From assembly GCA_030699785.1 (NCBI GenBank), contig JAUYLB010000040.1:1-36762 (forward strand): a stretch of 36,762 bases of DNA, read 5' to 3'. The translations under genes and the position numbers were made by a program. The DNA comes from a bacterium. GTDB taxonomy: Bacteria; Patescibacteriota; Minisyncoccia; Minisyncoccales; UBA10102. This document shows, piece by piece, positions 1,619 through 36,762 of this stretch (its first letter is position 1; each line of letters begins with the position of its first letter). The notes under the pieces were generated by a model, which worked only from the letters and a program-made list of their open reading frames with translations, searched no databases and was not told the DNA's origin.

Positions 1619-5619
<4,001 letters not shown>

Positions 5620-5690
5620 CTAAAATTGACAAGAAGCCTTCTTTCTGGTAGTCTTACCAGGAGATGGCCTAAGGGCTGTTTTTTAAAATC

Positions 5691-5885
5691 ATGGAAAAAT
5701 CAACAACAAAGATATCAACCTTTTTTAGAGAGGTAAAAATGGAGGCAAAAAAGGTGAGCTGGCCCACTCGGGAGCACGTAGTACGCAGCACTCTTATTGT
5801 ACTTGGATTCGCTATTGCAATTGCTGCTTTTCTTGGGTTTCTTGATTTTATACTTACCCGTATCTTGCAACGCTTCTTTCTTTAA
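5691..5885 (+). CDS. secE: Preprotein translocase subunit SecE
   Basis: 64 aa with FFREVKMEAKKVSWPT followed by a single TM helix. The conserved position directly upstream of nusG supports the call. Confidence 0.85.
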   Translation: MEKSTTKISTFFREVKMEAKKVSWPTREHVVRSTLIVLGFAIAIAAFLGFLDFILTRILQRFFL

Positions 5886-5890
5886 TTTTC

Positions 5891-6436
5891 ATGGCAAAGC
5901 AGCAGCTTACTCAAGAAAAGAACTGGTACGTTATTCATACCTATTCAGGGTATGAGGATGCCGTTGCTCGCAATTTGCGTCAGCGCATTGAGTCTCTGGG
6001 CATGGAAGAGAAAATCTTTACTGTCTTGGTTCCCAAAGAAAAGAAGATAAAGATAAAAAATGGAAAGCGCAAGTTGGTGGAAGAAAAGATCTATCCAGGA
6101 TATGTGCTGGTGGAAATGATCGTAACCGACGACTCCTGGTATATTGTGCGCAACACGCCAAATGTAACTGGATTTGTGGGGTCGGGCACCACGCCAATCC
6201 CTGTTTCACTAGAAGAGATTGAACAGCTTAAGAAGCGCATGGGAGAAGATACTCCCAAATATCATATCGAAGTGGCAGAAGGAGATGCCGTGCAAATCAT
6301 CGATGGCCCATTCAAAGAATTTGACGGAAAGGTTTCGGATGTTGACATGAAGCGGGGAAAGATCAAGGTGCTTATCAATATGTTTGGCAGAGACACCCCC
6401 GTAGAACTTGATTCTCTGCAGATAAAGAAATTATAA
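5891..6436 (+). CDS. nusG: Transcription termination/antitermination factor NusG
   Basis: 181 aa with WYVIHTYSGYE at the N-terminus and a C-terminal KOW region (GDAVQIIDGPFKEFDGKV). Confidence 0.95.
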   Translation: MAKQQLTQEKNWYVIHTYSGYEDAVARNLRQRIESLGMEEKIFTVLVPKEKKIKIKNGKRKLVEEKIYPGYVLVEMIVTDDSWYIVRNTPNVTGFVGSGTTPIPVSLEEIEQLKKRMGEDTPKYHIEVAEGDAVQIIDGPFKEFDGKVSDVDMKRGKIKVLINMFGRDTPVELDSLQIKKL

Positions 6437-6443
6437 CAAATTT

Positions 6444-6866
6444 ATGGCAAAGGCAATCAAAAAAATCATAAAACTGCACATCAAAGCGGGGGAAGCCACA
6501 CCAGCGCCTCCCGTGGGTCCGGCGCTTGCTCAACACGGCGTGAACATTGGCGAATTCTGCCAAAAATTCAACGCGCTTACCAAAGAAAAGCAGGGATCAA
6601 AAATCCCAACAGAAGTATTTGTATACGGAGATCGCACATACGACATTGTATTGCATGAACCTCCTGCTTCCGAACTCCTAAGAAAGATTGCGAAGATAGA
6701 AAAAGGATCCGGTCAGCCAAACAAAAAGAAAGTTGCCACTATCACCCAAGAGCAGCTGCAAGAGGTGGCTCAGCAAAAGATGCCAGACTTGAACACCACA
6801 GACATCGCGCAAGCCATGAAAACGGTTGGGGGCACGGCAAAGAGCATGGGCATTGAGGTAAAGTAG
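6444..6866 (+). CDS. rplK: 50S ribosomal protein L11
   Basis: 140 aa with KLHIKAGEATPAPPVGPALAQHGVNIGEFCQKFN. Confidence 0.96.
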   Translation: MAKAIKKIIKLHIKAGEATPAPPVGPALAQHGVNIGEFCQKFNALTKEKQGSKIPTEVFVYGDRTYDIVLHEPPASELLRKIAKIEKGSGQPNKKKVATITQEQLQEVAQQKMPDLNTTDIAQAMKTVGGTAKSMGIEVK

Positions 6867-6904
6867 TAGCAAAAAACCGAGCAATAAACTCGGTTTTTTG
6901 CTAC
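6866..6904 (+). terminator. Intrinsic, bidirectional-type terminator after rplK
   Basis: GTAGCAAAAAACCGAG-CAATAAA-CTCGGTTTTTTGCTAC, a perfect 16-bp stem with an A-tract and T-tract inside it. Confidence 0.8.
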
Positions 6905-6940
6905 TTGTTCTTCCGTAAAAAATTCGGTATACTTAGGTTT

Positions 6941-7453
6941 ATGGAACAACAAATCAGAAGATTTCCTTTATATCCTCCACGTCCCACCTGGGACGAGTAT
7001 TTTATGATGATGGCCAAGTTAGTTGCTGTGATGGCAACGTGCCCAAAGCGTCACGTAGGAGCAGTGGTGGTAAAAAACCGCCGCATTATAACCACAGGAT
7101 TTAACGGAGCTCCTCCGGGTCTTCCTCACTGCACAGAAGTGGGCTGTCTTATATTTGAAGACGAAGGGACATCCTGTCACCGTGTTCTTCACGCAGAACA
7201 TAATGCCGTACTGCAGGATTCCGGAAAGCTAGAGGGGGGAACTCTCTACACCTCGTACATCCCTTGCTTGAATTGCATGAAGGCAATAATTGCCGCAAAG
7301 ATCAAAGAAATTGTATACGAGAAAGAAACTCCTAATGCCGCAAAGCGTTACGAAGAAGCCCGCACATTTGCTTCTCAAGCAGGCATTGCTCTTAGAAAAA
7401 TCCCTCCCGTGGATATTGCAGGCTATCTTGCAAAGCACGAACAAACCCACTAG
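6941..7453 (+). CDS. Deoxycytidylate (dCMP) deaminase, ComEB/Dctd family
   Basis: Zinc motifs HAEHNAV and PCLNCMKAI. The ATG at 6941 is preferred over the TTG at 6905, which lies inside the rplK terminator. Confidence 0.88.
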   Translation: MEQQIRRFPLYPPRPTWDEYFMMMAKLVAVMATCPKRHVGAVVVKNRRIITTGFNGAPPGLPHCTEVGCLIFEDEGTSCHRVLHAEHNAVLQDSGKLEGGTLYTSYIPCLNCMKAIIAAKIKEIVYEKETPNAAKRYEEARTFASQAGIALRKIPPVDIAGYLAKHEQTH

Positions 7454-7464
7454 GTGTTTGTCTA

Positions 7465-7524
7465 CCTTGATTCGGTTAAGTTATCCACACCTTGTCCGAA
7501 TCAAGGAAATATTGTGCGACATTA
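7465..7524 (+). repeat. DnaA-box hairpin repeat, copy G1
   Basis: The CCTTGATTCGG / CCGAATCAAGG stem encloses AAGTTATCCACACCTTG, with TTATCCACA at 7481-7489, and is followed by AAATATTGTGCGACATTA. It is related to 18878-18952. Confidence 0.7.
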
Positions 7525-7550
7525 TGTCATTTCCAACCATCCGTGTCATT

Positions 7551-7582
7551 CCCTGCCAGGTACTATTTAATACCTGGCAGGG
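7551..7582. other. Perfect 12-bp stem hairpin in the convergent intergenic region
   Basis: CCCTGCCAGGTA-CTATTTAA-TACCTGGCAGGG. Its 3' arm overlaps an alternative stem, CAGGGTA (7578-7584) with TACCCTG (7593-7599). Confidence 0.6.
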
Positions 7583-7671
7583 TATAGTATTGTACCCTGC
7601 TTGACTGGGAATCCAGTGATGGGGTCAAAGTACTGGATCCCCGCTTTCGCGGGGATGACAAAACAGGGCTT

Positions 7672-8664
7672 TTAATTCAAAGATTTCACAAACTTTTTGT
7701 GAGCTTCGGTAACAACACCTCCAGAAACAGTAAGATCTCCTTTAATGGCGGGGTGTGGATCGTAGCCTTCAAGCGTAGCGTGCTCTGGCACAAAGGAGTT
7801 TATGTCTTTTGTCTCATCGCTAATAGAAACTTTAGGGAATGGACGTGGCTCTCGTTCTAGCTGAAGGAGAGCAGCTTCTTTATGGTTGTCATATATATGC
7901 ACATCACCAAATGTGTGCACAAATTCTCCCGGCTTATACCCTGTGATCTTCGCGGCAACGGCAAGTAAAAGAGCGTAGCTTCCGATATTGAACGGAACTC
8001 CAAGAAAAATATCCGCGCTCCGCTGGTAAAGTTGAAGACAAAGTCTGCCATCTTTCACATTAAATTGAAACATATTGTGACAGATAGGGAAGCGAGAAGC
8101 CTTTTCCGGCGTTGCCATTTTATAAAGATATTCAGGATTCCATGAGGTAACAACGGCGTTATGGCAAGCAGGATCTCTCTTCACCTCATTCAATGCCCAA
8201 GAGAGCTGATCAATAGTACGTCCGTCTTGTGTTGGCCATGCCCGCCATAACTCTCCATATATGTAGCGGAGTGTCCCGTGTTCTTTGGCAAAGACTTCAT
8301 CTTGTGAGATTTTTTCAATGAATTCTTCTTTCTCAAGCTTTTTGTTCGCTCCACTCTCTATTTTTTCCAAGTACAATTTATACGGATAATCATCCCAAAT
8401 ATGCACGTTATTATCTACTAAATACTTTATATTATTTTGTCCCGAAAAGAACCAATAGAGTTCTTGAAGAACTCCCTTCCAGTATACCTTTTTTGTCGTC
8501 AGCAAGGGAAAGCCGTCTTTTTCTAAATCGAAACGAATTTGGCGCCCAAAAAGACTCCAGGTAACAGCTTCTGTATGCTCATCAATCTGTTTGTCTCCAT
8601 GCTCTAAAATCTCTCGCATGAGGTTAAGATACTGGTATTCCGGATGTTGAGTATTGTTAGTCAT
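7672..8664 (-). CDS. thyA: Thymidylate synthase (ThyA type)
   Basis: Contains LQELYWFFSG, the active-site region RFPICHNMFQFNV, QRSADIFLGVPFNI and GYDPHPAIK. The start is taken at MTNNTQ (8664) rather than the ORF-track 8718. It carries a Lactobacillus-like internal insert and a roughly 18-aa C-terminal tail. Confidence 0.93.
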   Translation of the reverse strand: MTNNTQHPEYQYLNLMREILEHGDKQIDEHTEAVTWSLFGRQIRFDLEKDGFPLLTTKKVYWKGVLQELYWFFSGQNNIKYLVDNNVHIWDDYPYKLYLEKIESGANKKLEKEEFIEKISQDEVFAKEHGTLRYIYGELWRAWPTQDGRTIDQLSWALNEVKRDPACHNAVVTSWNPEYLYKMATPEKASRFPICHNMFQFNVKDGRLCLQLYQRSADIFLGVPFNIGSYALLLAVAAKITGYKPGEFVHTFGDVHIYDNHKEAALLQLEREPRPFPKVSISDETKDINSFVPEHATLEGYDPHPAIKGDLTVSGGVVTEAHKKFVKSLN

Positions 8665-12779: not shown

Positions 12780-14481
12780 GCTCCTCTATCTTCATTTCGC
12801 CAACATCTCCTCCACCTCTTTTTCGAACGCTTATGGTTCCATTTGCCTCCTCCTTTTCTCCCACAACAAGAAGGTAGGGGATTTTTGCCTTCTCTCCTTC
12901 TCGAATCTTCTTGCCAAGCGTTTCGGAATCATTTCGCACCAAAAGGCGCAGAGAAACGCTTGAAGTATCTTGCAATGTTTGGGCAATTTTTTCTCCCAGC
13001 TTATTCCACTTATCTGAAACAGGAAGAATCCATGCCTGCTCGGGAGAAAGCCAGAGAGGGAATGCTCCGGCGTAGTGTTCAATAAGAACTCCCAAGAAAC
13101 GCTCCGCGGATCCCGCGATAGCGCTATGAATCATAATGGGGGTACGGCGGATTCCTTCTTCGTCAATATATTCAAGCTGAAAGCGCTGGGGCATAGTAAA
13201 GTCCAGTTGCACGGTAGATAGTTGCCACTCACGACCCAGGGAATCTTGAGCAATAAGATCCATTTTTGGGCCGTAAAAGGCAGCCTCTCCTAGAGCTTCC
13301 TTGTATGATATTTTTTGCTCGCGCAAGAGTTCTCGCATCAAATGCTGGGACTTTTCCCACACAATATCATCTCCCAGGTAGTTTTCTTTTTTTGCTTCGT
13401 CTCGCAAGGAAAGTCTCATCCAGTACTTCATGCCGTATGTTTCCATGGTTTCGCGTATAGCATGGAGCAGTTTTGAAAATTCCTCTTGTATCTGATCTTC
13501 TCTGCAAAAACAATGGGCATCGTCTTGGGAAAAAGCGCGCAGTCTTGTAAGTCCGGAGAGTTCTCCCGGCTTTTCGTCACGATACAGATTGGCAAAGTCC
13601 GCGATACGAACAGGAAGGTCACGATAACTTCTTGTGCGGGAAGCATAAATCTGTGTGTGCTGAGGACAATTCATGGGCTTAAGAAAATACTCCTCTTCTG
13701 TGTAGTTGGAATATACGCGGAACATGTCGTCTTTGTATTTCTCGTAGTGTCCAGAAACTTTAAAAAGTTCCGCCTTGTTTATTTGGGGGGTGTGCACCTC
13801 CTGATAGCCCATCTTTTTTCTTAGCTCTCTTGAGTAGTCTCGTATCGCCTGCAAAAGAACCATGCCTTTGGGGGCATACAAGGGAAGTCCGGGGCCAACA
13901 AGCTCTGAGAACACAAACAGATCCAGCTCTTTTCCAAGCTTTCTATGATCGCGTTTTTTTGCCTCTTCAAGCATTTCTAGGTGAGAAAGAAGCTCTTTTT
14001 TTGTCTGAAACGCCATGCCATAGATGCGCGTAAGCATGGTGTTTTTCTCGTCTCCTCTCCAGTAAGCTCCCGCCAGGTGGGAGAGTCTGAAACTTTCAGG
14101 ATCAATAGAGCTCATATCATCCACGTGTCCACCTCGGCACAAATCGGTAAAAGAACCGGAAGTATAGAGAGTAATGGGGGACCCCTCTTTAACAATGCCA
14201 TCAATAAGCTCAAGCTTGTACGGGTTGGTTTTAAAAAGCTCTCGCGCCTCTTGTTCTGAAACTTCTCTGCCGGAAAACCCTTTCCAAGTTGGCAGAAGCT
14301 CTTTCATCTTTGCTTCTATTCTGGGTAGATCATCCTCTCCAACAGGAGAAGAAAATTCAAAGTCATAGTAAAAGCCGGTCTCGATAGCGGGCCCTAATGT
14401 TGGTTTTGCGTTGGGGTACAAATCCAATACGGCGGTGGCAAGCAGGTGAGCCAATGAGTGGCGAGTATGTTCTATGTTCAT
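12739..14481 (-). CDS. thrS: Threonine--tRNA ligase, lacking the N-terminal TGS domain
   Basis: 580 aa that starts directly in the editing domain (HTRHSLAHLL, DLCRGGH). Class II core motifs include FRDEKPGELSGLTRLRAF, and an anticodon-binding domain follows. Confidence 0.95.
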   Translation of the reverse strand: MNIEHTRHSLAHLLATAVLDLYPNAKPTLGPAIETGFYYDFEFSSPVGEDDLPRIEAKMKELLPTWKGFSGREVSEQEARELFKTNPYKLELIDGIVKEGSPITLYTSGSFTDLCRGGHVDDMSSIDPESFRLSHLAGAYWRGDEKNTMLTRIYGMAFQTKKELLSHLEMLEEAKKRDHRKLGKELDLFVFSELVGPGLPLYAPKGMVLLQAIRDYSRELRKKMGYQEVHTPQINKAELFKVSGHYEKYKDDMFRVYSNYTEEEYFLKPMNCPQHTQIYASRTRSYRDLPVRIADFANLYRDEKPGELSGLTRLRAFSQDDAHCFCREDQIQEEFSKLLHAIRETMETYGMKYWMRLSLRDEAKKENYLGDDIVWEKSQHLMRELLREQKISYKEALGEAAFYGPKMDLIAQDSLGREWQLSTVQLDFTMPQRFQLEYIDEEGIRRTPIMIHSAIAGSAERFLGVLIEHYAGAFPLWLSPEQAWILPVSDKWNKLGEKIAQTLQDTSSVSLRLLVRNDSETLGKKIREGEKAKIPYLLVVGEKEEANGTISVRKRGGGDVGEMKIEELATLLHDEIKNKN

Positions 14482-14506
14482 ATGTCGCAGTTATTGTATC
14501 CTCCAA

Positions 14507-14641
14507 ATTACGTAACTTTTTGCTCGGATATATTTTTGCCGCGGACCGTCATAAAATCCTGCTGGATTTTTGACTCGCTCTCGCGCCGTCGCGCTTCCGA
14601 GGGCCGCTACAAAAACATATTCCTCACTAAGTTTCGTAATT
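14507..14641 (-). repeat. ~135-nt hairpin repeat, copy A (inverted orientation)
   Basis: The reverse complement reads ACGAAACTTAGTGAGGAATATGTTTTTGTAGCGGCCCTCGGAAGCGCGACGGCGCGAGAGCGAGTCAAAAATCCAGCAGGATTTTATGACGGTCCGCGGCAAAAATATATCCGAGCAAAAAGTTACGT. It lies between the dnaE stop and the thrS start. Confidence 0.9.
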
Positions 14642-14650
14642 TGGAGTGTA

Positions 14651-17600
14651 TCATATTTCTTTAAGTTCTTCCACTTCGTCGGCAACAAACTTGCGCTCTC
14701 CATTTCGCGTGTCGGGCCTTCCCACAATAAACAGAATTCTGTCGGGCTGAAGAATCTCGGACTTCTCTTCAAATAAGCTCGAAAAGATAACCACTTCAAT
14801 TTTATTGGTAAGATCTTCTAAAAGCAAAAAGAGCATGGGTTTTCCTGTCTTGGTTATTACCTTCTTGGCGCTTGAAACAATGCCACATATGCGAATCTTT
14901 CCTGTTATGGGGAGCTGACCGTCGTCTTCGTACAACGTGCTGATCGGAAAAGCCTTTTGCGCTATCTGAGGCGCAAGGCGTTTGAGGGGATGGGAAGTAA
15001 CATACAATCCCAGAAGCTCCTTCTCCCACCGCAGGATTTCTCGCTCACTCGCGGGGGAAGCATCTTCAAGAATCGAAGAAATAGATGACTGCATGCTCGA
15101 ACCAAAAAGAGACGTTTGGGATCCATTCTGCATTTTTGCTCCCTCTCTTGCGATACTCAAGAGCCGATCGCTGTTGCTTAAGAGACGATTTCTCTCACCA
15201 AACTGATCAAAAACCCCCGCTTTTACCATGCTTTCTAAAGATTTTTTATTCAGATCGCGGGAGCTTACACGAGAGACAAAATCCTGAATAGACAAAAAGC
15301 GACCGTTCGCCTTTCGTTCTTGAATGATACAGTCGACAATTTTCTCTCCCACGTTTTTAATGGCAGATAGCCCAAAACGAATTTGACCCCTGTCTGACAC
15401 CACACTGAATTGACTGAAACTCTCATTAATATCGGGAGAAAGAACCTCAACACCCATTTTTTTGCATTCATCAATCAAAAACGCGACTCGTTCTACATCT
15501 CCTCGTTCCGCCGTTATGAGGGCAGACATAAACTCAAGGGGATAGTGAGCCTTTAGCCAGGCGGTCTGGTAGGCGATAATGGCATAGGCGGCCGCATGAC
15601 TTCTATTAAATCCATATTTTGCAAATGGAAGTATCCACTCCCAGATCTGCTCTGCCACCTGGCGGTTAATACCGTTTCGGGTCATACCATCAATAAATTT
15701 ACCCTTTTGTTCTACAAGAAGCTTTTCTATCTTTTTTCCCACCGCTTTTCTTAAAACATCCGCCTCACCAACAGAAAATCCCGCAAGACTCGTTGCAATG
15801 TGCATAAGTTGTTCTTGAAAGATGCAGATACCTTGAGTATTTTTTAAAATTGGCTCCAGGGCAGGATGCAGATATTCGATGGTTCTTCTCCCATGTTTGC
15901 GAGCAATATATTCAGGAATGAGCTCCATGGGACCGGGACGATACAAAGCTATCATAGCAATTAAGTCTTCAAACTCTGTAGGTCTCATCTCTCTAAGGTA
16001 CCTGCGCATACCAGACGACTCTACTTGAAAGATGCCTATGGTCTCGGCTTTCCGAAGAAGTTCAAACACCTTTGGGTCGTCGTGAGGAATCCGCTCTATA
16101 TCCACATTCACTTTGTGAATGGCGTACACGCGCTTGAGTGTGTCTTCGATAATACTTAAGTTCTTTAGTCCTAAAAAATCCATTTTGAGAAGACCTATGT
16201 CTTCAACACTCTTCATGTCGTACTGTGTCACAATGTTCTGATCCGTCTGCGTGGGACGCTGAACAGGCACAAGTGTTCGCAGAGAATCAGCTGAAATCAC
16301 AATGCCACACGCGTGCGTAGAAGCGTGCCTGGCAACCCCCTCCAGTTTTTTCCCAAGATCAATAAGACGACGAGCTTTTTCATTTGAATCATAAAAATCT
16401 CGAAATTCTTCCACGTTATCCAGCGTCATTTGCAATGTATGGGCAAATGGGATCATCTTTGCTGTCTTGTCGCAGTAGCTGTACTCATATCCCAAGGCTC
16501 TTCCAACATCTCGAATGACTGCGCGCGCAGCCATGGTTCCAAAAGTTATAATTTGAGCAACATGATCTCTCCCGTATTTGTCGGCAACATAGTTTATAAC
16601 TTCATCACGACGATGGTCGGCAAAGTCTAAATCAATATCGGGCATGGAGATGCGCTCACGATTTAAGAATCGGTCAAAGAGCAGGTTATACTGCAAAGGG
16701 TTAACGTTGGTAATACTCAAAACATATGAAACAAGAGACCCACCCGCCGATCCTCTCCCTGGTCCCACCACAATGTGCCTTTTCTTGGCCCAGTTCACCA
16801 AATCCTGCACAATAAGAAAGTAAGTGGCATATCCTGTTTGCGCGATAACTTGCAGTTCATCTTCTAGACGCTCTTTTGCGGCTTGGGATCCATTAAATTC
16901 GGATTTCATGGCCAGACCCTCAAACGCAAGCTCTCTCAAAAATTCATCTGCTGTTTTCCCATTTGGAAGAGGATAGGGAGGCAATTTAATAGTACCCAAC
17001 TCCAGCTCAAAAGAGCAGGAATCAGCAATTTTGCAAGAGTTCTCAAGAGCTTCTGGAACATCTAGAAAGTGTTCTGCCATCTCTTTGGGTCCTCGCATAG
17101 AGAAATCATCGTGACGCAAAGAAAGGCGCTCTTCATCGTCATGTTTTGCTCCCGTGTTGATGAGCATAAGAACGTCTTGCGCTTCCGCGTCTTCGGGACG
17201 CATATAGTGACAGTCTGCCGTTGCTATGAGTGGAATACCTGTTTCTTTTGCTATTTTTTTAATTTCTTTGTTCACTTTTGCCTGCTCGGGAATGTTTGCG
17301 TGGTGCTGAATCTCAAGGTAGAAGTTGCCCTTGCCAAATAGTCCTTCGTATCGTATCGCGAGCTTCTTGGCGTCTTCCAGACGACCCGAGAGAATCAGTT
17401 GAGGAATTTTTCCTTTTAAACAACCCGAAAGCGCGGTAATGCCTTCCGCGTGTGTATCTAAGAGTTCCTCATCTATTCTGGGTTTGTAGTAGAAGCCATT
17501 CAAATGAGCTTCTGTCACTAATGCAACAAGGTTTTGGTATCCTTGCTTTGTGCGAGCAAGCAAAAGAAAATGGTAACTCTTGTCATCAATGCCCGAACGC

Positions 17601-20762: not shown

Positions 20763-20820
20763 GCCCATGACTTCCTCCAAAGAAGATGGGGGACTAGCAT
20801 GTTTATTTATTTTCCAATAA

Positions 20821-20858
20821 TTGCGTCAAATTTCAACCATGGTTGAAATTTGACGCAA
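20821..20858. repeat. 38-bp perfect palindrome, family P, copy 1
   Basis: TTGCGTCAAATTTCAACCATGGTTGAAATTTGACGCAA. It is flanked symmetrically by the direct repeats CTAGCATGTTTATT (20793-20806) and CTAGCATTGTTTAC (20871-20884). Confidence 0.85.
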
Positions 20859-20957
20859 ATGTAAATCTGGCTAGCATTGTTTACCTTGACGACTCTGTAG
20901 CACCGCGGTACCATAGACTCATACAAAGGGTCTTAATAAATATAACATAGATATACT

Positions 20958-22440: not shown

Positions 22441-22893
22441 ATGGATAAAAAATACTCTATTGTTCGTACGCTTTACCTCTACCTGTTTTCTTTGGTAGGG
22501 CTTGTTATGCTCACTATTGGAGGTGTGCAGCTTGTTGATCTTGCTTTAAAAACCTATGTCTTCCCGGGATCTGATATTTATGAATACTATCCGGATCGAG
22601 CATTTATTCCCACCAAAGATGGGATGACAACAATTACAGAAGAGGATTTTGTGCGGGCAATGAAAAACTGTACAGAGGCATGTGAGCTTTCAAACGAGGA
22701 GCGAGCATCTCTGGTAGCTTGGCTTCAAGACTATGAAACGCAAAGAGAGATTCAGGATGCAATGCCGGAAAAAAACGCTCAAAGAGAACGGCAACGTCAG
22801 GCCTCTCGCGCTTTAGCCTCAATCATTGTTGGTATGCCCATATTCTTCTTTCACTGGAGAGTTATTCAGCAGGACCACCGCAATCTTTCTTGA
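22441..22893 (+). CDS. Hypothetical membrane protein with 2 TM helices flanking a soluble loop
   Basis: 150-aa ORF with hydrophobic segments LYLYLFSLVGLVMLTIGGV and ALASIIVGMPIFFFHW. It is tightly spaced after the SIMPL gene. Confidence 0.6.
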   Translation: MDKKYSIVRTLYLYLFSLVGLVMLTIGGVQLVDLALKTYVFPGSDIYEYYPDRAFIPTKDGMTTITEEDFVRAMKNCTEACELSNEERASLVAWLQDYETQREIQDAMPEKNAQRERQRQASRALASIIVGMPIFFFHWRVIQQDHRNLS

Positions 22894-22901
22894 TTTTATT
22901 G

Positions 22902-23036
22902 AATTATAAAAATCAGTGAGGAATATGTTCTTTGGAGAGACCCTCGGAGCGCGACGGCGCGAGAGTGAACCAAAAATTTAGCAGAATTTTATGGTGTTCT
23001 CGGAAAAGAATATATCCGAACGAAAAGTTTATAATT
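22902..23036 (+). repeat. ~135-nt hairpin repeat, copy B (most diverged)
   Basis: AATTATAAAAATCAGTGAGGAATATGTTCTTTGGAGAGACCCTCGGAGCGCGACGGCGCGAGAGTGAACCAAAAATTTAGCAGAATTTTATGGTGTTCTCGGAAAAGAATATATCCGAACGAAAAGTTTATAATT. Confidence 0.88.
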
Positions 23037-23081
23037 AAAAACAATAAAGGTCGGATTATAGGTCTAAAACCCATCGCTTCC

Positions 23082-25257: not shown

Positions 25258-25566
25258 ATGGCAGAAGAGAAACCGACATATCAGGACTTTCTTGAATATG
25301 TGATAAAGTCCCTTGTAGATCACCCCGACGTTGTGGAAGTGAGTCGCAAGGTAGATGAAATGGGAGTGCTCTTAACACTAAAAGTGCACCCAGACGATAT
25401 GGGACAGCTTATTGGACGACAAGGATCCACTGCAAGGGCCATTCGAACACTTGTGCGCATTGCCGGCATGAAATCCCAGGCGCGTGTCAATATGAAGATT
25501 GAAGAACCAGAAGGAGGACGTGGAGAAAGCCACAGAAAGGAATCTTTTGACTCGCTTAATTTCTAG
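25258..25566 (+). CDS. KH-domain RNA-binding protein (YlqC / UPF0109 family)
   Basis: LIGRQGSTARAIRTLV (GxxG KH motif). The position after rpsP is conserved. Confidence 0.85.
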   Translation: MAEEKPTYQDFLEYVIKSLVDHPDVVEVSRKVDEMGVLLTLKVHPDDMGQLIGRQGSTARAIRTLVRIAGMKSQARVNMKIEEPEGGRGESHRKESFDSLNF

Positions 25567-25573
25567 ATATATT

Positions 25574-25711
25574 GAATCGCGAAACTCTTTACTCGGATAC
25601 GCTTTTGGAGAGGCACGCTGTAAAATCTTGCTAGATTTTCAGCTCGCTCTCGCGCCGTCGCGCTCCGAGAGGCCCTCCAAAAGCATATCCTTCGCACAAG
25701 TTTCGTGATTC
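25574..25711 (-). repeat. ~135-nt hairpin repeat, copy C (inverted orientation)
   Basis: The reverse complement reads GAATCACGAAACTTGTGCGAAGGATATGCTTTTGGAGGGCCTCTCGGAGCGCGACGGCGCGAGAGCGAGCTGAAAATCTAGCAAGATTTTACAGCGTGCCTCTCCAAAAGCGTATCCGAGTAAAGAGTTTCGCGATTC. Confidence 0.9.
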
Positions 25712-25732
25712 AAAAAATGGATATATTATACC

Positions 25733-25772
25733 ATGAAAACGGAGGCGCCCTATGCGGGCGCACCGTTTTCAT
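25733..25772 (+). terminator. GC-rich hairpin with flanking A- and T-tracts, 13 nt upstream of trmD
   Basis: ATGAAAACGG-AG-GCGCCC-TATG-C-GGGCGC-A-CCGTTTTCAT. Confidence 0.55.
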
Positions 25773-25785
25773 TTAAAATAGCGTT

Positions 25786-26445
25786 ATGAGATTTGATATT
25801 CTTACCATCTTTCCCCAACTATTCTCCTCATTTGCGGAAGAGTCTCTTGTAAAATGCGCAAGAGAAAAAAATAAACTCTCTCTTGAGGTTCATGATCTTC
25901 GATCTTGGACAACAGATGCGCACAAAACCGTTGATGACAAACCGTTCGGCGGGGGACTGGGTATGGTTATGAAGGTAGAGCCCATTCATGGAGCAATCAA
26001 GGATCTCAAGCGCAAAGGTGGAAAGGTTGTGCTCTTTAGTCCTCGTGGTAAAAGATTCACACAAAGTATGGCACAGGAGTTTTCTCGCCAATCTCAACTC
26101 ATTCTCGTGTGCGGAAGGTACGAAGGAGTAGACGAGCGAGTTGCAAAACACCTCGCCGATTATATTGTTTCGTTGGGTCCTTTTGTGCTCATGGGAGGAG
26201 AAATACCCGCCATGGCCATTATAGAAGCAACATCCAGACTTATTCCGGGAGTCGTAGGAAAAGCAGATTTTCTCAAAGAACACATACCCGCAACCGGGGG
26301 ATTTATTGAGTATCCCCAATACACCAGACCAGAAGAATACTCTCCGGAATCAGGAACTGTTTGGAAAATTCCCAAGGTACTTATCTCTGGAGATCATAAA
26401 AAAATAGGGGAGTGGAGGAAAAAGAAAGGAAAGACCCTTCGCTGA
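25786..26445 (+). CDS. trmD: tRNA (guanine37-N1)-methyltransferase
   Basis: MRFDILTIFPQLF, DDKPFGGGLGMVM, VCGRYEGVDERV and SLGPFVLMGGE. Confidence 0.95.
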   Translation: MRFDILTIFPQLFSSFAEESLVKCAREKNKLSLEVHDLRSWTTDAHKTVDDKPFGGGLGMVMKVEPIHGAIKDLKRKGGKVVLFSPRGKRFTQSMAQEFSRQSQLILVCGRYEGVDERVAKHLADYIVSLGPFVLMGGEIPAMAIIEATSRLIPGVVGKADFLKEHIPATGGFIEYPQYTRPEEYSPESGTVWKIPKVLISGDHKKIGEWRKKKGKTLR

Positions 26446-26454
26446 ATTCTTTCT

Positions 26455-26587
26455 ATTGTAAAACTCTGTGAGGAATATGTTTTTGAAGCGGCCCTCGGAG
26501 CGCGACGACGCGAGAGCGAGTCAAAAACTCAGTAGAGTTTTATGACGGTCCGCGGAAAAAATATATCCGAACAGAGAGTTTTGCAAT
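26455..26587 (+). repeat. ~135-nt hairpin repeat, copy D
   Basis: ATTGTAAAACTCTGTGAGGAATATGTTTTTGAAGCGGCCCTCGGAGCGCGACGACGCGAGAGCGAGTCAAAAACTCAGTAGAGTTTTATGACGGTCCGCGGAAAAAATATATCCGAACAGAGAGTTTTGCAAT. Confidence 0.92.
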
Positions 26588-26642
26588 TCAGTATGAATCT
26601 GTTGTCAAGGCGAGTTCTTTGTGGTACAAGAAAGGAGTCATA

Positions 26643-26829: not shown

Positions 26830-26840
26830 TTCATGGTTGT

Positions 26841-26880
26841 GGGTTATAAGTTATAAGTCATTAGTTATAAGTCATCTATT
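26841..26880 (+). repeat. C-depleted GTTATAAG tandem tract immediately upstream of rpmG
   Basis: GGGTTATAAGTTATAAGTCATTAGTTATAAGTCATCTATT. It shares GGGTTATAAGTTAT with 29308-29321. Confidence 0.7.
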
Positions 26881-27054
26881 ATGGCAGCAAAAAGAAAAAA
26901 GGTATTCGTAAAGCTTAAGTGCGAGACATGCAAGGATGTGAACTACTTCACCAGAAAATCCAAGATACTCACATCAGAAGGAACCAAGTTAAATCTCAAA
27001 AAATTCTGCGCCTCTTGCAGAAAGCACGTCAAGCATGCTGAATCAAAGAAGTAG
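26881..27054 (+). CDS. rpmG: 50S ribosomal protein L33 (57 aa, below the ORF-track length cutoff)
   Basis: My translation is MAAKRKKVFVKLKCETCKDVNYFTRKSKILTSEGTKLNLKKFCASCRKHVKHAESKK, which shows the CxxC..CxxC L33 pattern. Confidence 0.88.
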   Translation: MAAKRKKVFVKLKCETCKDVNYFTRKSKILTSEGTKLNLKKFCASCRKHVKHAESKK

Positions 27055-29188: not shown

Positions 29189-29345
29189 ATATCCGCAGAC
29201 AGCAGGCACCCCGTAAGACCTGCCGAGGATAAGCTTTATCTGTGTTGGTAAGCTTATATTGTCTGCGAAAGCAGGCTTTTTTGTTTAAAAATCTAGGTCG
29301 CAGTTCTGGGTTATAAGTTATCAGTTGTTCGTTAATAGTTAATGT
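29189..29345 (+). promoter_or_regulatory. Structured rplJ 5' leader, a possible L10-leader-type autoregulatory element
   Basis: Closing stem CGCAGACA (29194-29201) with TGTCTGCG (29260-29267). Inner hairpins GCAGG/CCTGC and ATAAGCT/AGCTTAT. A second GCAGGC (29271-29276) is followed by T6. Confidence 0.45.
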
Positions 29346-29865: not shown

Positions 29866-30297
29866 ATGACAGAAGAAAAAGAAACAACAACCAAAGAGGT
29901 AGTTGAAGTACCGGAAAAGTTTAAAAAGTTGGTTGAAACCGTAGAGCAAATGAGTGTTCTTGACCTTTCCGAACTGGTAAAGGTTCTTGAAAAGAAGTTT
30001 GGCGTTTCGGCAGCAGCCCCTATGGTAGTCGCGGCAGCGCCCGCGGGAGCAGCAGCTCCAGAAGCAGAAGAAGAGAAGAGCGCTTTTGACGTTGAACTCT
30101 CTGCCGTGGGAGACCAGAAAATTGAAGTTATCAAGATTGTGCGCGATGCCACGCAAAAGGGATTAAAAGAAGCAAAAGACCTTGTAGACGCGGCGGTAAC
30201 AGCCCCTCAAATGCTCAAGGAGCAGGCCAAGAAAGAAGATGCCGAAGACCTCAAGAAAAAGCTTGAGGCGGTAGGAGCAAAAGTAACACTCAAGTAA
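29866..30297 (+). CDS. rplL: 50S ribosomal protein L7/L12
   Basis: Ala-rich hinge [23 protein letters not shown] and C-terminal domain [24 protein letters not shown]. Confidence 0.95.
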
Positions 30298-30306
30298 ATA
30301 TTTTGT

Positions 30307-30440
30307 ACTACAAAACTCGGGCGAGGGATATGTTTTTGAAACGGCCCTCGGAGCGCGACGGCGCGAGAGCGAGTCAAAAACTCAGTAGAGTTTTATGACG
30401 GTCCGTGGAAAAAATATATCCGAGCAAAGAGTTTTGCAAT
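30307..30440 (+). repeat. ~135-nt hairpin repeat, copy E
   Basis: ACTACAAAACTCGGGCGAGGGATATGTTTTTGAAACGGCCCTCGGAGCGCGACGGCGCGAGAGCGAGTCAAAAACTCAGTAGAGTTTTATGACGGTCCGTGGAAAAAATATATCCGAGCAAAGAGTTTTGCAAT. Confidence 0.92.
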
Positions 30441-30459
30441 GCGTAAAAGATGGTTTTGA

Positions 30460-32346
30460 TTACCGCAGTGAGAGGGCAAAGACTCCCGTTGAGGTAGAGA
30501 ACAGCAGCATAGAGTCCGACAGCAGAGCAATGCTGTTGGCTCTTTTGTTTGGAATCTCAATCTGGCGTATACCTTTTGCATCTTTTTGAGCAATAACCAC
30601 CCTTTCTCCTTCCTGATCTAAAAGAGCAAGGAAAGGAAGATCTCTTTGTGTTTGTATGGCTGATATGAATAGGGGAGGAACAGAAACAATATTCATGTCT
30701 TCCATATACGCGCCACGGTAGTAGCGTTGTAAAAGACTGCCCCCAGTTGCTACCCAGATATTCCCATCAATGGCCATATCTAACGCTCCCACAGGACGAA
30801 AAGCCGATCCCGAATGAAGCCAAGGAGTAGGAAAAGAAAAAGCAGGGTCTTCATAGCGCTGAACATTACCATTTGTTGCATCTAGAATATACAGATAAGA
30901 AAGATACCCCACGATAGAGCTTGGAATAAAGTTAGAGGGAAGTCCAGACTCTCTATTTTTTACCTCTTTTCCCTCTATCCAGTAGAGGCGTCCGTCTTGC
31001 CCCAGAAAAAACCCAATCTCTTCTACAAAGGAAACAGAAATCATGGGGGTGTCTGTTTCAAACACAAAGGGATCTTTTTCTCCCTTTTCCCACGCAAGAA
31101 TATGAGAAGTCGTGGGGGAAATAGCATATACAACACGTTCGTTGGCTGCAATAGAATATGATCCTTCTTTGGGAAAAGAGAAGAGAAGCTCCACGCCCAA
31201 CGGTTTTTCTATGCCCGTTACAATGCGGATACGCTCTTCGGCTAAAGAAAGAAGATTGAGCACGCTTCCACCACTTTCTTTATAGGGCAAGAGAAAGCCT
31301 TTTGCTTCTTGGAGCTTCTTGTACGCTTCCATTTTATTTTCCTGCTCATGATCTTGCAAGGCCAGGTCAATAAGTTCTTCTGCCATGGCAACAGCTTGTC
31401 TTGCCTCTCTTTTTTCTTTGTACCCGTCAACCCATCCAAAAAACAAAGATCCTATAAAAAGAACAACAACAAAAGTAAAGAACAAAGAGAGTGGGTGACG
31501 GTATTCCCGTATTTTTTGGTACCAGCTGTGCTTCTGTACCAAAGACGCTAGTGAAAGATTTGTTCCCTTCTTTTTGTTTCCAAATTTCCACAAAAGAGGT
31601 TTGCGCAACAAGAGAGCAGCTTTAGAGAGCGGAGTTTCGGGAGCCAATGCGTCTTGCACAAACATGGTAGTAAGAGTACCCGGAACACCAGCCACTTCTT
31701 TTCTGCGCTCTTGAAAAATTTCGTGGAGCTGTTTTTCGTTTTGTACAGAAGGAAGCTGTTCTAAAATACCCTGCTTGGTACACTCTTGGTAGAGGTTGTG
31801 AGTTACCACCAGCACTTTGTCTCCGGGTAGCGCGGACCCAGAGACAATACTGCCAAATGACGGCCCCACACCGGATTCTTTTTTAGAAGATTCTACGGTT
31901 TTTTGAATATCAATAAGAGAAGTGCTTCTTGCCATAAGCACCTTTATGTTACCCATTGTAGAGAAACGAAAAGGAGAGCTTGACTGATCTTGGCTTGCCG
32001 TAAACACAAGAACGGCCACGTGCAGGTTGCCAATCCAGTCCACGCTTCCCTTTTTTACCTCTGCTTTAAGGTAGGCATTTCCCGCCCGAAGAGCAAGCTG
32101 AAAAAAGGTTTCTGGCGTTTCTTTTTTCTTTACCTTCTTGCCGGCATTTTTGTAATACTCGTCTCGAACAACATGGGCAAGACGATCCACAAAACGAGAA
32201 TGAGAAGCAAGCGCGCTTGTTACTTCAACAACAAAGTACATGCTCCCCGCGGACTTTTCTTGATCCGTTTTTCCTTCAAAAGAAAAGCTCTTTGATATTC
32301 TATCTTTTGCCCGAGGGTTAAAAAGAAGTTCAACAACTTTTAGCAT
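30460..32346 (-). CDS. Large hypothetical single-pass membrane protein
   Basis: About 628 aa, with the start set at MLKVVELL (32346) because the ORF-track start overlaps tRNA-Val. It has a central TM helix (LSLFFTFVVVLFIGSLFFGWV) and a C-terminal half with repeated beta-strand-like segments. Confidence 0.7.
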   Translation of the reverse strand: MLKVVELLFNPRAKDRISKSFSFEGKTDQEKSAGSMYFVVEVTSALASHSRFVDRLAHVVRDEYYKNAGKKVKKKETPETFFQLALRAGNAYLKAEVKKGSVDWIGNLHVAVLVFTASQDQSSSPFRFSTMGNIKVLMARSTSLIDIQKTVESSKKESGVGPSFGSIVSGSALPGDKVLVVTHNLYQECTKQGILEQLPSVQNEKQLHEIFQERRKEVAGVPGTLTTMFVQDALAPETPLSKAALLLRKPLLWKFGNKKKGTNLSLASLVQKHSWYQKIREYRHPLSLFFTFVVVLFIGSLFFGWVDGYKEKREARQAVAMAEELIDLALQDHEQENKMEAYKKLQEAKGFLLPYKESGGSVLNLLSLAEERIRIVTGIEKPLGVELLFSFPKEGSYSIAANERVVYAISPTTSHILAWEKGEKDPFVFETDTPMISVSFVEEIGFFLGQDGRLYWIEGKEVKNRESGLPSNFIPSSIVGYLSYLYILDATNGNVQRYEDPAFSFPTPWLHSGSAFRPVGALDMAIDGNIWVATGGSLLQRYYRGAYMEDMNIVSVPPLFISAIQTQRDLPFLALLDQEGERVVIAQKDAKGIRQIEIPNKRANSIALLSDSMLLFSTSTGVFALSLR

Positions 32347-32580: not shown

Positions 32581-32650
32581 TTGTTTTTGTTGTCTTAACT
32601 CAATACTGTTTTGTATCGCTCTGACTGCCAATCGGTAGCTGTATCTAAAA

Positions 32651-32688
32651 TTGCGTCAAATTTCAACCATGGTGAGAATTTGACGCAA
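32651..32688. repeat. 38-bp palindrome, family P, copy 2
   Basis: TTGCGTCAAATTTCAACCATGGTGAGAATTTGACGCAA, with 2 mismatches to perfect symmetry and to copy 1. Confidence 0.85.
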
Positions 32689-32811
32689 AAGATTTTCTGA
32701 GACAGTTTTAAGATAACGTGTTGGTTCTTGATGTTTGCCCTTGATGATTCTATTGGGGGCTGTTTTTGTTTGGCTTACATTGCCTGTGCATAACCCTTGC
32801 ATAACGGGTAC

Positions 32812-34526: not shown

Positions 34527-36233
34527 ATGACAAGAGGTCTTTTTGCGCACTGGAGGGAGTATCTTGTTCTTGCATGCATCATTATGTTTGGATTTATGGT
34601 GATTGCCAAGCTTGCCTCCCTTCAAATTTTCAATCACGGATTATATAAAGCTCTGGCGCAAGGCCAGCAACAAAAAAGTTCCCTTCAGGTAGGGGAGCGA
34701 GGCACTATCTATATGCAAGACAAGCAGAGAAGGTTGGTGCCCCTGGCAACCACACATGATATTTCATTTCTCTATGCTTCTCCTCAAGATGTTGAGGATA
34801 CCAAAAATACGTCTACCGCTTTGGCCATTATTTTAGAACAGAATCAAGAAACTATCTTTTTGCGCCTAGAGCAAAAAGATCGTTTATTCTCTCAACTTTC
34901 GCGCCAACTCACCCAAGAACAAGAAGAGATGGTGCGCGTAGCAAACCTTCCAGGCATTCATATTGGAAAAGAAGCAAGGCGCCTCTATCCTCAAGGAACG
35001 CTTGCCTCTCACGTGGTTGGGTTTATCAATCAGGACGGCATGGGACAGTACGGATTGGAGGCCTACTACCACGAAATTCTTCAGGGAAAAGAAGAATTAT
35101 TAGACATGACTCAAAATCCCGCAAGATACCTTAGACAGGCATTTGGATCAACCCCAGAACGAGGCGCCTCTCTTGTTCTTACCATTGATTCAGGAATCCA
35201 GTCATTTGCCGAAACAGCTCTTGATAAAACTGTAGAACGTTTGAACGCCAAAGAAGGAACCATCATTGTGGCAGACCCTTTTACCGGAAAAATTCTCGCT
35301 CTTGCCACAACTCCTCGATATGATCCAAATGAGTACACCATGGTCTCAAACTTTTCTCTGTTTATAAATCCTGCCACGCAAAATCTGTATGAGCCGGGTT
35401 CTGTTCTTAAGGCACTCACCATGGCAGCCGCGCTGGACAGAGGTGTTATCACTCCAGATACTCTATATAAAGACACGGGAAGTGTGCGCATTGGAGGAAG
35501 AACAATATCAAATTACAACAATAGGGTGTTTGGAGAGCAGACCATGACACAGGTACTGCAATTCTCTATTAATACGGGAGCAGTATTTGCCCAGCAACAA
35601 CTCGGAGACAGCGCGTTTATGGAGTACCTGGAGCGGTTTGGCATTTTTGAAAAAACAGGCATTGATTTATCGGGAGAAGCATTTTCTCGAAACACCGAGT
35701 TTAAAAAAGGATACGCGATTAATTTTGCTACTGCCTCGTTTGGACAAGGAATTGAAATGACCGCCATGCAAGTTGTGCGCATATATAGCGCGTTTGCCAA
35801 TGGAGGATTTTTGGTGCAACCTCACCTTGGAGAAAAGATTATTGTAAACGGAGAAGAACAAGTCTTGGAATATCCTGTGTCTATAACCGCTGTTCTCTCT
35901 CCAAAAGCAAGCGCGCAGATTACCCACATGCTTGAACGCGTATTAGAAGACGGATTTGGCAAACAGGCTCGTATCCCTGGATATAAAATGGCAGGAAAAA
36001 CAGGAACTTCTCAAATTGCCTGGTCGGCCCTGGGAATTCAAAAACCAGGATACTCCGATCAAAGCATACAGTCATTTGTGGGATATGGGCCCACGTCCAA
36101 CCCACAGTTTGTTATTCTGATTTCTCTAAGAGACCCCCAAACCAAGACCGCCGAATACTCCGCCATGCCTCTTTACAAAGAGGTGGCGCAATATATTCTT
36201 GATTACTACGCTATTCCTCCAGACGCTGACTAA
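34527..36233 (+). CDS. ftsI: Penicillin-binding protein, class B transpeptidase (FtsI / PBP2-like)
   Basis: An N-terminal TM helix, a PBP dimerisation domain, SxxK (GSVLKA), SxN (ISNYNN) and KTGT (GKTGTSQ). Confidence 0.9.
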   Translation: MTRGLFAHWREYLVLACIIMFGFMVIAKLASLQIFNHGLYKALAQGQQQKSSLQVGERGTIYMQDKQRRLVPLATTHDISFLYASPQDVEDTKNTSTALAIILEQNQETIFLRLEQKDRLFSQLSRQLTQEQEEMVRVANLPGIHIGKEARRLYPQGTLASHVVGFINQDGMGQYGLEAYYHEILQGKEELLDMTQNPARYLRQAFGSTPERGASLVLTIDSGIQSFAETALDKTVERLNAKEGTIIVADPFTGKILALATTPRYDPNEYTMVSNFSLFINPATQNLYEPGSVLKALTMAAALDRGVITPDTLYKDTGSVRIGGRTISNYNNRVFGEQTMTQVLQFSINTGAVFAQQQLGDSAFMEYLERFGIFEKTGIDLSGEAFSRNTEFKKGYAINFATASFGQGIEMTAMQVVRIYSAFANGGFLVQPHLGEKIIVNGEEQVLEYPVSITAVLSPKASAQITHMLERVLEDGFGKQARIPGYKMAGKTGTSQIAWSALGIQKPGYSDQSIQSFVGYGPTSNPQFVILISLRDPQTKTAEYSAMPLYKEVAQYILDYYAIPPDAD

Positions 36234-36267
36234 GCCTTTTCAAAAGCCAAAATATAAGGTATCTTGA

Positions 36268-36353
36268 ACTACGAAACTCGGGCGAGAGATATGTTTTTGA
36301 AACGGCCCTCGCAGCGCGACGGCGCGAGAGCGAGTCAAAAACTCAGCAGAGTC
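36268..36353 (+). repeat. ~135-nt hairpin repeat, copy F, left part (truncated after the apical loop)
   Basis: AACTACGAAACTCGGGCGAGAGATATGTTTTTGAAACGGCCCTCGCAGCGCGACGGCGCGAGAGCGAGTCAAAAACTCAGCAGAGTC. Confidence 0.88.
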
Positions 36354-36621
36354 GGGGCGCAAAGTACATACAAACATAAGATTTAGAAGCTTCTGCGTGA
36401 TATGATTTCAAGGCGCGACGACGATGGAGTAGCCAGAGCTACTTCAAGGAGGAGCAACGCAGAAATCAGTCACGCAGGAGCTTCCCAAAGGGCGGGCCTC
36501 TTTTACCCATCTTCTGCGTTGCTTGTCGCTCATGTGCCGTTTGGCACACATTACTCCTCGCGCCTTGAAGCTGGATAAAAGAGGCTCCGCTAAACTAATG
36601 TTTGTATGTGCTTTGCGCCCC
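36354..36621 (+). repeat. 268-bp element bounded by terminal inverted repeats, nested in repeat copy F (MITE-like or structured RNA)
   Basis: The terminal inverted repeats are GGGGCGCAAAGTACATACAAACATAAGATTTAG and CTAAACTAATGTTTGTATGTGCTTTGCGCCCC. The interior holds two inverted modules and no ORF. Confidence 0.75.
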
Positions 36622-36723
36622 CAGCGGCTCTCGGAGCGCGGCGGCGCGAGAGCGAGTCAAAAACTCAGCAGAGTTTTATGACGGTCCGCGGAAAAAATAT
36701 ATCCGAGCAAAGAGTTTTACAAT
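36622..36723 (+). repeat. ~135-nt hairpin repeat, copy F, right part
   Basis: CAGCGGCTCTCGGAGCGCGGCGGCGCGAGAGCGAGTCAAAAACTCAGCAGAGTTTTATGACGGTCCGCGGAAAAAATATATCCGAGCAAAGAGTTTTACAAT. Confidence 0.88.
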
Positions 36724-36733
36724 GAAGAACACC

Positions 36734-36762
36734 ATGAAGACTCTTGTTATTGTTGAGAGCCC
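36734..36762 (+). CDS. topA: DNA topoisomerase I, 5' end only (runs off the window)
   Basis: MKTLVIVESP matches the characteristic TopA Toprim N-terminus (LVIVESPAKAK). An in-frame ATG at 36722 overlaps the repeat end. Only about 10 codons are visible. Confidence 0.5.

Follow-up and report, generated by a model that had tools for sequence, protein, structure and literature searches.

A two-armed non-coding element at the end of a metagenomic contig is probably one copy of a widespread, MITE-like mobile DNA family

The locus and its parts

The window, i.e., the whole stretch of DNA analysed here, is an entire contig of 36,762 bp that forms part of the metagenome-assembled genome of a Parcubacteria-type bacterium close to Wildermuthbacteria. 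A spacer of ~490 nt follows the genes mraZ-rsmH-ftsL-ftsI, and within it lies a 268-nt non-coding element (36354-36621), ending 141 nt before the contig end. The element splits one copy of a ~130-nt imperfectly palindromic repeat (hereafter the host repeat), of which five more copies are present in the contig. The arm scores in the following list were obtained with the covariance model R1, built from 52 diverse arms; a search of the window with R1 gave nothing else convincing beyond the two arms of the element.

36264-36353, + strand: interrupted host repeat, left portion as far as about repeat position 80, placed by alignment; target context, outside the element
36354-36383: left terminal inverted repeat (TIR), the 5' strand of the closing stem on the + strand; 27/30 complementary to 36592-36621
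36386-36484, + strand: hairpin arm with a box pair (R1 67.0 bits, E 3e-16), seen also from its outer stem and the fold
36407-36418, + strand: box 1, TTCAAGGCGCGA; string located, conserved in relatives
36426-36445, + strand: variable apical hairpin, GGAGTAGC-CAGA-GCTACTTC, from the fold and the alignment of relatives
36453-36464, + strand: box 2, AGCAACGCAGAA; string located, conserved in relatives
36484-36492: small hairpin CCC-AAA-GGG between the two arms
36491-36590, - strand: hairpin arm with a box pair (R1 76.6 bits, E 7e-19), seen also from its outer stem
36512-36523, - strand: box 2, reading TTCTGCGTTGCT on the + strand
36533-36548: right-half hairpin, different from the left-half one and flanked by the reverse-complement boxes
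36558-36569, - strand: box 1, reading TCGCGCCTTGAA on the + strand
36592-36621: right TIR, aligned to the closing stem found in candidate phyla radiation (CPR) relatives
36622-36723, + strand: interrupted host repeat, right portion from about repeat position 27 onwards, up to the repeat end, placed by alignment; target context
14480-14670 (-), 22880-23060 (+), 25550-25740 (-), 26430-26620 (+) and 30290-30470 (+): the uninterrupted copies of the host repeat, the interrupted copy (36264-36353/36622-36723) being on the + strand

An earlier note on this DNA had described inverted termini of 32-33 nt enclosing two inverted box-hairpin-box modules, and all the strings it singled out, together with their reverse complements, were located where it had placed them. 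The TIRs are 30 nt long and 90% complementary; when one indel is allowed, the pairing extends to TTTAG/CTAAA, which explains the greater length given before. The terminal 24-mer GGGGCGCAAAGTACATACAAACAT has only two sites in the window, one in each TIR, with 0 expected from 100 shuffles.

Either strand, folded alone, prefers a closing stem, two arms of ~100 nt and the small CCC-AAA-GGG hairpin, with a minimum free energy of -142.1 kcal/mol (z -12.9) for the + strand and -134.9 kcal/mol (z -12.3) for the - strand. The outer stem of the left arm pairs 36386-36400 with 36470-36484 (15 nt, 93%), and that of the right arm pairs 36496-36514 with 36567-36585 (19 nt, 89%). These stems had been listed in the earlier note as alternative local pairings, which are thus real and belong to the preferred fold. 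The long rod with side hairpins that it had proposed can also form, but comes second to the two-arm fold supported by covariation (see below), since the two halves have outer stems and apical hairpins with no sequence relationship to each other. A reading as a cruciform-forming site is not needed for this element.

The apical hairpin of the left arm is flanked by CGACGA and GGAGG, which make up the tandem G.A motif described below. An 11-nt string in the element, GCGCGACGACG, had been taken as an echo of the host repeat core. The string is indeed present, but the resemblance is probably due to chance: in relatives from genomes without the host repeat, the same segment is part of the tandem G.A motif and alternates with GGAGG. 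The earlier note saw no ORF in the element. ORFs of 58 and 35 aa can be called mechanically within it, but no reading frame or strand is conserved among 24 relatives, and the changes in apical length are not multiples of three. Some CPR copies (L130, L132, L147 and L172) are stop-free in one frame across the whole ~270 nt; because frame and strand differ between these copies, this is no evidence of coding.

Junctions with the host repeat

The left junction, ...CAGCAGAGTC|GGGG, falls at about position 80 of the host repeat (flank ..GAGTC|), and the right junction, CCCC|CAGCGGC..., at about position 27. A 50-nt direct repeat therefore brackets the element (36303-36352 and 36625-36674, 47/50 identical), which formally resembles a target duplication of 50-54 nt. 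The two flanks more likely came from two different copies of the host repeat, because they differ in the way such copies do; their union at the end of the element would then result from an adjacent deletion or from recombination. The alternative is a merging of two element copies by the assembler. One later substitution would make the right junction compatible with insertion at TA in a variant of the repeat that reads GTAGCGG (cf. 14480-14670). TA or TNA duplications were absent from the flanks of the window copy, and the 36.7-kb contig holds only this one copy of the family. With TIRs matching at 27/30 positions, no TA duplication and its nesting in another palindromic repeat, the copy is probably old and immobile, i.e., an ordinary, probably dead family member despite its intact arms and boxes.

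The TIR of the element gave no match among metagenome contigs, and therefore neither close relatives nor an empty site were found there. Retrieval by FtsI did not provide an empty site either, since the nearest relatives (71-72% FtsI identity) carry different DNA after ftsI. The contigs of the two nearest FtsI relatives end 74-106 nt past ftsI (L121 7705-7778, L122 3478-3583), one of them inside a tRNA gene.

The host repeats themselves (~125-140 nt) are intergenic and fold as DNA into an outer stem with two inner hairpins (z -6); one copy lies ~50 nt upstream of tRNA-Tyr. The core of this repeat was absent from the 122 relative loci in which it was searched. The contig also carries a separate small repeat family, a 41-nt near-perfect palindrome, AATTGCGTCAAATTTCAACCATGGTTGAAATTTGACGCAAA, in two copies with 93% identity (20819-20859 and 32649-32689), and short tandem or dispersed repeats of the GTTATAAGT type at 26836-26886 and 29303-29339, beside a tRNA cluster.

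Relatives and their distribution

Relatives were sought with a box-pair pattern consisting of TCAAGGCGCGA, a variable gap of ~34 nt and AGCAACGCAGA; with 22 fixed bases, about one chance match was expected by our own estimate. The pattern matched at least 120 stretches in a collection of species-representative genomes, from at least 10 phyla. According to record titles, the listed matches include Planctomycetota, Verrucomicrobiota, Acidobacteriota, Bacteroidota, Gamma- and Betaproteobacteria, 'Deltaproteobacteria', Elusimicrobia, Oligoflexales, Atribacteria, Oscillospiraceae, Saccharibacteria and Staskawiczbacteria. Another 54 metagenome loci came from a second pattern tailored to the CPR form, and BLAST located copies on plasmids of Halomonas sp. 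PA16-9, P. aeruginosa PA83 and Azotobacter chroococcum. The homologous loci thus number more than 170, which removes the doubt raised earlier that the element might have no further copies or homologues. The box pattern had no match in viral contigs, E. coli genomes likewise gave none, and the flanks of the P. aeruginosa PA83 copy, searched in other plasmids, gave no empty site.

The searchable literature, queried with a sequence string and keywords, yielded no description of the family, which together with its absence from Rfam 15 is not proof of novelty. A MITE described from Thiomargarita has different ends and a TATAG direct repeat (PMC4853749).

Architecture of the family and marks of mobility

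In every copy inspected, the boxes top a long hairpin inside a small TIR-bounded element, and TIRs could be delimited in most of the relatives tested. The elements fall into size classes of ~160-170 nt (one arm), ~216 nt and ~260-300 nt (two arms and a small CCC-NNN-GGG hairpin). Read on the - strand, the window element is collinear from end to end with 23 two-arm elements of the CPR in an alignment of 24 sequences: its arm at 36491-36590 corresponds to arm 1 of the CPR relatives and the arm at 36386-36484 to arm 2. The CCC-NNN-GGG hairpin was seen in most of the printed two-arm relatives as well as in the consensus of the full-length CPR alignment.

The copies are intergenic, with 5 of 122 lying inside a crudely called ORF, and the orientation of the boxes is random with respect to neighbouring genes (15 co-directional, 18 antisense) and to local GC skew (50 versus 47). 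The AT skew of the 8-kb flanks was positive in the box-sense orientation at 64 of 97 genome loci (L001-L120; versus 33; Wilcoxon p 0.002). One Brocadiaceae metagenome-assembled genome has at least 11 loci among the matches listed; the seven copies compared within it are ~92% identical, and their flanks are unrelated (~50%). This genome and the Acidobacteriota record OY970224.1 both hold many recent copies. Many copies are situated at contig ends.

By a crude automatic test, 41 of 94 elements have a TA or TNA duplication, and manual reading of TIR ends and flanks gave a TWA (TTA/TAA) duplication in eight Brocadiaceae copies. Outside the CPR, the ends are typically C-TA-[G...C]-TA-G, with TA recurring also outside the CTAG context, and in CPR relatives the target duplications are inconsistent. 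Duplication of TA is a hallmark of IS630/Tc1-mariner elements (PMC2170065), while CTAG/YTAA or 3-nt duplications have been described for IS5-family elements and their MITEs (PMC3189936).

The TIRs fall into several unrelated classes: TA|GGAGCC..., TA|GGGCCTGTT..., TA|GTGYC..., GGGTGCGGAAAG... in Brocadiaceae, GGAGYGCAGGATTCGAACC... in most CPR copies, AGTGCCTCATTT... in L172 and GGGGCGCAAAG... in the window. Across all these classes, the arms are recognisably alike. This swapping of TIRs over persistent arms argues against the arms being simply additional sites for a transposase that reads the TIRs, and for a separately constrained module.

Several further observations concern the CPR copies. 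In six independent loci, the gap between an element end and the 5' end of a tRNA gene is 1-6 nt, with random orientation of the element (L125 5341/5348; L149 1307/1309; L164 ~8497/8500, identical to L102; L113 1288/1292; L151 504-778; and L176), which by our own rough estimate is many times the chance rate. TIRs of CPR copies read GGTTCGAATCCTGCNCNCC, resembling the T-loop and the 3' strand of the acceptor stem of tRNA. Tiny palindromic inserts, e.g., TCCCCCCACTTAATCTGTACAGATTAAGTGGGGGGA, are nested in the conserved module of L133/L136, L145/L168, L165/L170 and L173, so that CPR genomes appear to hold several miniature hairpin element families which insert into one another. On the Saccharibacteria contig CAYUSS010000015.1 (L049 2481-8000), two inverted family elements bracket a 23S rRNA gene (2986-7706, - strand), with 5S downstream. 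This gene is 4.7 kb long compared with the 2,925 positions of the bacterial model, and the excess length suggests insertions; the two elements could pair in the precursor transcript like an rRNA processing stem.

Compensatory changes and the conserved module

In the 24-sequence full-length alignment, RNAalifold predicted 86 consensus pairs, 66 of them with changes on both sides. The proportion of paired cells was 93.7%, as opposed to 77.4% after column shuffles and at most 41.3% with slid partners; the corresponding covariation scores were 0.463, 0.168 and at most 0.109. In the closing stem (helix 1 of the alignment), 22 of 24 pairs had changed on both sides, which could merely reflect the binding of the two ends by one transposase. 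This explanation does not apply to the hairpins within each arm. Indeed, the outer stem covaries freely among the 52 diverse arms: one of its pairs is GC in 14, AU in 14, CG in 14, UA in 6 and UG in 4 of them, and is broken in none.

Beside the boxes lies a motif 5'-SGAS-3'/5'-SGAS-3', whose two sides swap between GGAG/CGAC and CGAC/GGAG. Alignment columns 34-74 and 37-71 covary in the 52 arms, with G.A and A.G between them, and this pattern indicates putative tandem G.A pairs flanked by covarying G-C pairs. The 11-nt boxes 1 and 2 are invariant in the same arms. For the first set, this invariance exists partly by construction, because the search pattern required the boxes; arms retrieved without that requirement still keep most box positions. 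A predicted pair between box 1 and box 2 shows a double change from G-C to A-U in the second arms of Saccharibacteria. The core of the module consists of box 1, the tandem G.A helix, the variable hairpin and box 2, carried by a long stem.

Mismatches in the outer arm stems are unequally divided on the box-sense strand, with 81 G.T versus 36 A.C. Within the CPR set, the counts are 29 versus 10 for arm 1 and 15 versus 13 for the closing stem; the 66 versus 17 for arm 2 come mostly from two columns, and RNAalifold favours G.U. From these comparisons of aligned sequences, we conclude that the arms are probably selected as hairpins in a single-stranded state, with which RNA and ssDNA are alike compatible.

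Search for a partner transposase

An all-against-all ORF comparison of 120 + 54 loci revealed no transposase or other recurrent protein near the ~175 loci, and no full-length IS with matching TIRs was found at these loci or in 72,556 plasmids. Nor was a partner enzyme detected by looking for pairs of TIRs on either side of an IS, or by tblastn with the sequence of an IS630 transposase. On the Azotobacter chroococcum plasmid NZ_CP066311.1 (L179), an annotated IS630-family IS (1312-2506) abuts a family element (2502-2770) with a CTAG common to both, and the ends of this IS, TA|GTGTC..., are like one of the TIR classes of the family. The CDS of this IS has in-frame stops on translation.

Interpretation

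The best explanation, to which we assign a probability of about 0.7, is that the element belongs, as one copy, to a widespread family of miniature mobile DNA of the MITE type, non-coding and bounded by TIRs. The earlier note had named a MITE among its candidates; at the family level this is supported by TIR-bounded, non-coding, multi-copy elements with TA/TWA duplications, whereas the window copy itself has no duplication. At 268 nt the element lies well within the size of MITEs, under about 600 bp. In its behaviour the family is a MITE and stands closest to the IS630 type (RUP, Stowaway-like) or the IS5 type (MITEPsy1, Tourist-like). A DDE transposase, either of the Tc1/mariner/IS630 type or of the IS5 family (IS427/IS1031/ISL2, Harbinger-like), would recognise the TIRs and move the elements in trans, making cuts at TA with a stagger of 2-3 nt. 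The arms would act in single-stranded form, as read-through RNA or transient ssDNA, and would serve as a protein-recognition module independent of the TIRs; this independence is drawn from the exchange of TIRs between sublineages while the arms persist. Several points count against the MITE-like reading: a DDE transposase acting on double-stranded DNA does not alone explain why the hairpins are conserved, no transposase was found near any of the ~175 loci, the window copy is the only one in its contig, has no TA/TNA duplication and carries a TIR without a match among metagenome contigs, and the target duplications of CPR relatives are inconsistent. A stronger version, which we hold only tentatively, would make the core a functional module of structured RNA or ssDNA that has its own protein partner or activity and rides on TA-targeting ends swapped several times, those of the CPR mimicking tRNA 3' ends. 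The family would then represent a mobile structured nucleic-acid module across at least 10 phyla rather than the debris of one insertion sequence.

The strength of the fold (z -12.9), the many compensatory changes found in every helix, conserved boxes that stay unpaired and look like a bubble, and the excess of wobble pairs on one strand would all suit a structured RNA gene of the host, be it a 6S-like rod, as suggested in the earlier note, or another regulatory RNA, with the inverted termini as its closing stem. Such a gene would hardly be expected in several copies per genome with unrelated flanks, TA or TWA duplications at the ends and random orientation to neighbouring genes (15 versus 18), nor would its closing stem, here the TIR, be replaced wholesale between sublineages. 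The element also has no sigma-70-like promoter and no intrinsic-terminator-like site inside it. Rfam release 15 gave no match for 36200-36762 at E<=10, with no tRNA or Rfam family overlapping the element, and at the gathering score only tRNA and rRNA were detected in the window and 18 relatives' loci, none covering the element. We therefore regard a host RNA as improbable, and the 6S-like candidate, multi-copy and in either orientation, is set aside. Strand-specific hairpins with conserved asymmetric loops, and the failure to find a DDE partner at ~175 loci and in 72,556 plasmids, could also be read as signs of a transposon that moves as ssDNA hairpins, derived from IS200/IS605 or REPIN-like, in which an HUH/Y1 enzyme (TnpA/RAYT) recognises and moves the box hairpins; two inverted modules would then offer one active hairpin on either strand. 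IS200/IS605 elements and REPINs, however, lack TIRs and target duplications, both of which the family possesses, the TIRs being long. Its box orientation is unbiased with respect to GC skew (50 versus 47), and no Y1 or RAYT gene recurs near its copies, so that we consider this origin very improbable.

A different doubt concerns the window arrangement alone: repeat collapse during assembly could have created, in whole or in part, the bracketing of the element by 50-nt repeats close to the contig end. In favour of this, 141 nt separate the element from the contig end, the flanking repeat has six copies in the contig, the two 50-nt stretches show 3 differences, as separate repeat copies do, and a break shortly after ftsI is also seen in the contigs of the nearest relatives. 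The contig path nevertheless requires k-mer coverage of both junctions, and the element itself is not artefactual, since the same full-length architecture recurs in independent assemblies; an artefact at this site is rather unlikely on balance. Bridge or seek RNAs of IS110/IS1111 lie beside a recombinase gene and have variable, programmable loops on conserved stems; they were rejected, as there is no adjacent recombinase and here the loops are constant and the stems vary. Retron ncRNAs, single-copy and with an adjacent reverse transcriptase gene, were rejected as well, given the multi-copy element and no recurrent adjacent ORF. Other likenesses, to XerCD/dif sites (TIR), AAV-ITR/Rep sites, oriT nic sites, 16S helix 31 (box 2), the T-loop (box 1), SRP or k-turn motifs and an ssDNA promoter, were short resemblances at chance level that passed no test.

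As a rule, MITEs are lineage-specific leftovers of a resident insertion sequence that do not persist for long, and what is conserved in them is the transposase-binding end. The MITE-like family described here reverses this usual pattern: its ends vary, and a two-box hairpin module is kept from the CPR to Pseudomonas plasmids. If this is true, the module would be read by an unrecognised factor, either a transposition cofactor or an RNA-binding/processing protein. Should the pattern hold, annotators would gain a covariance model with which to recognise a repeat that interrupts metagenome assemblies across many phyla. Halomonas, P. aeruginosa PA83, Azotobacter, Gilvimarinus xylanilyticus HB14 and Methylophaga sp. 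OBS4 are cultured hosts available for direct tests.

Comparison with known systems

The family resembles the IS630/Tc1-mariner MITEs, such as RUP of Streptococcus pneumoniae and the plant Stowaway elements, in being small, non-coding, TIR-bounded, multi-copy and intergenic, in duplicating a TA target, often at CTAG, and in its presumed mobilisation in trans. Known IS630-type MITE families, however, occur within a single genus or species and have TIRs like those of a resident IS, whereas the present family spans at least 10 phyla, no matching IS was found, and its TIRs differ between sublineages while the internal structured module is constant. With the Correia elements of Neisseria (CREE/NEMIS), it shares TA duplication, long TIRs and a stable hairpin fold. 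Transcripts of Correia elements are processed as RNA hairpins, and we know of no cognate transposase for them. They measure 100-155 bp, are found only in Neisseria and have no sequence relationship to the present family; neither invariant asymmetric internal-loop boxes nor a two-arm form have been reported for them.

Dispersed intergenic hairpins with conserved motifs are likewise typical of REPINs or REP sequences with RAYT and of IS200/IS605-derived elements, and the inverted doublet of REPINs resembles the two arms. In contrast to the present family, these elements have no TIRs or duplications and are tied to a Y1 transposase gene. With 6S RNA the element has a rod-like fold, a similar size and a conserved internal bubble in common, but 6S RNA is encoded by one gene copy and transcribed from its own promoter, while the family is multi-copy, shows insertion footprints and has no match in Rfam. 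To our knowledge, the family differs from every MITE family in its phylogenetic breadth, its constant asymmetric internal module and its interchanged ends.

Finally, the MITEs of the IS5 family (MITEPsy1, PMC3189936; plant Tourist/Harbinger) have similar ends of the G(A/G)G..C.GT type and TNA or CTAG/YTAA duplications, comparable to the TTA/TAA of the Brocadiaceae copies. Unlike them, most copies of the present family, including those at non-CTAG sites, duplicate TA alone, and no IS5-family parent was identified.
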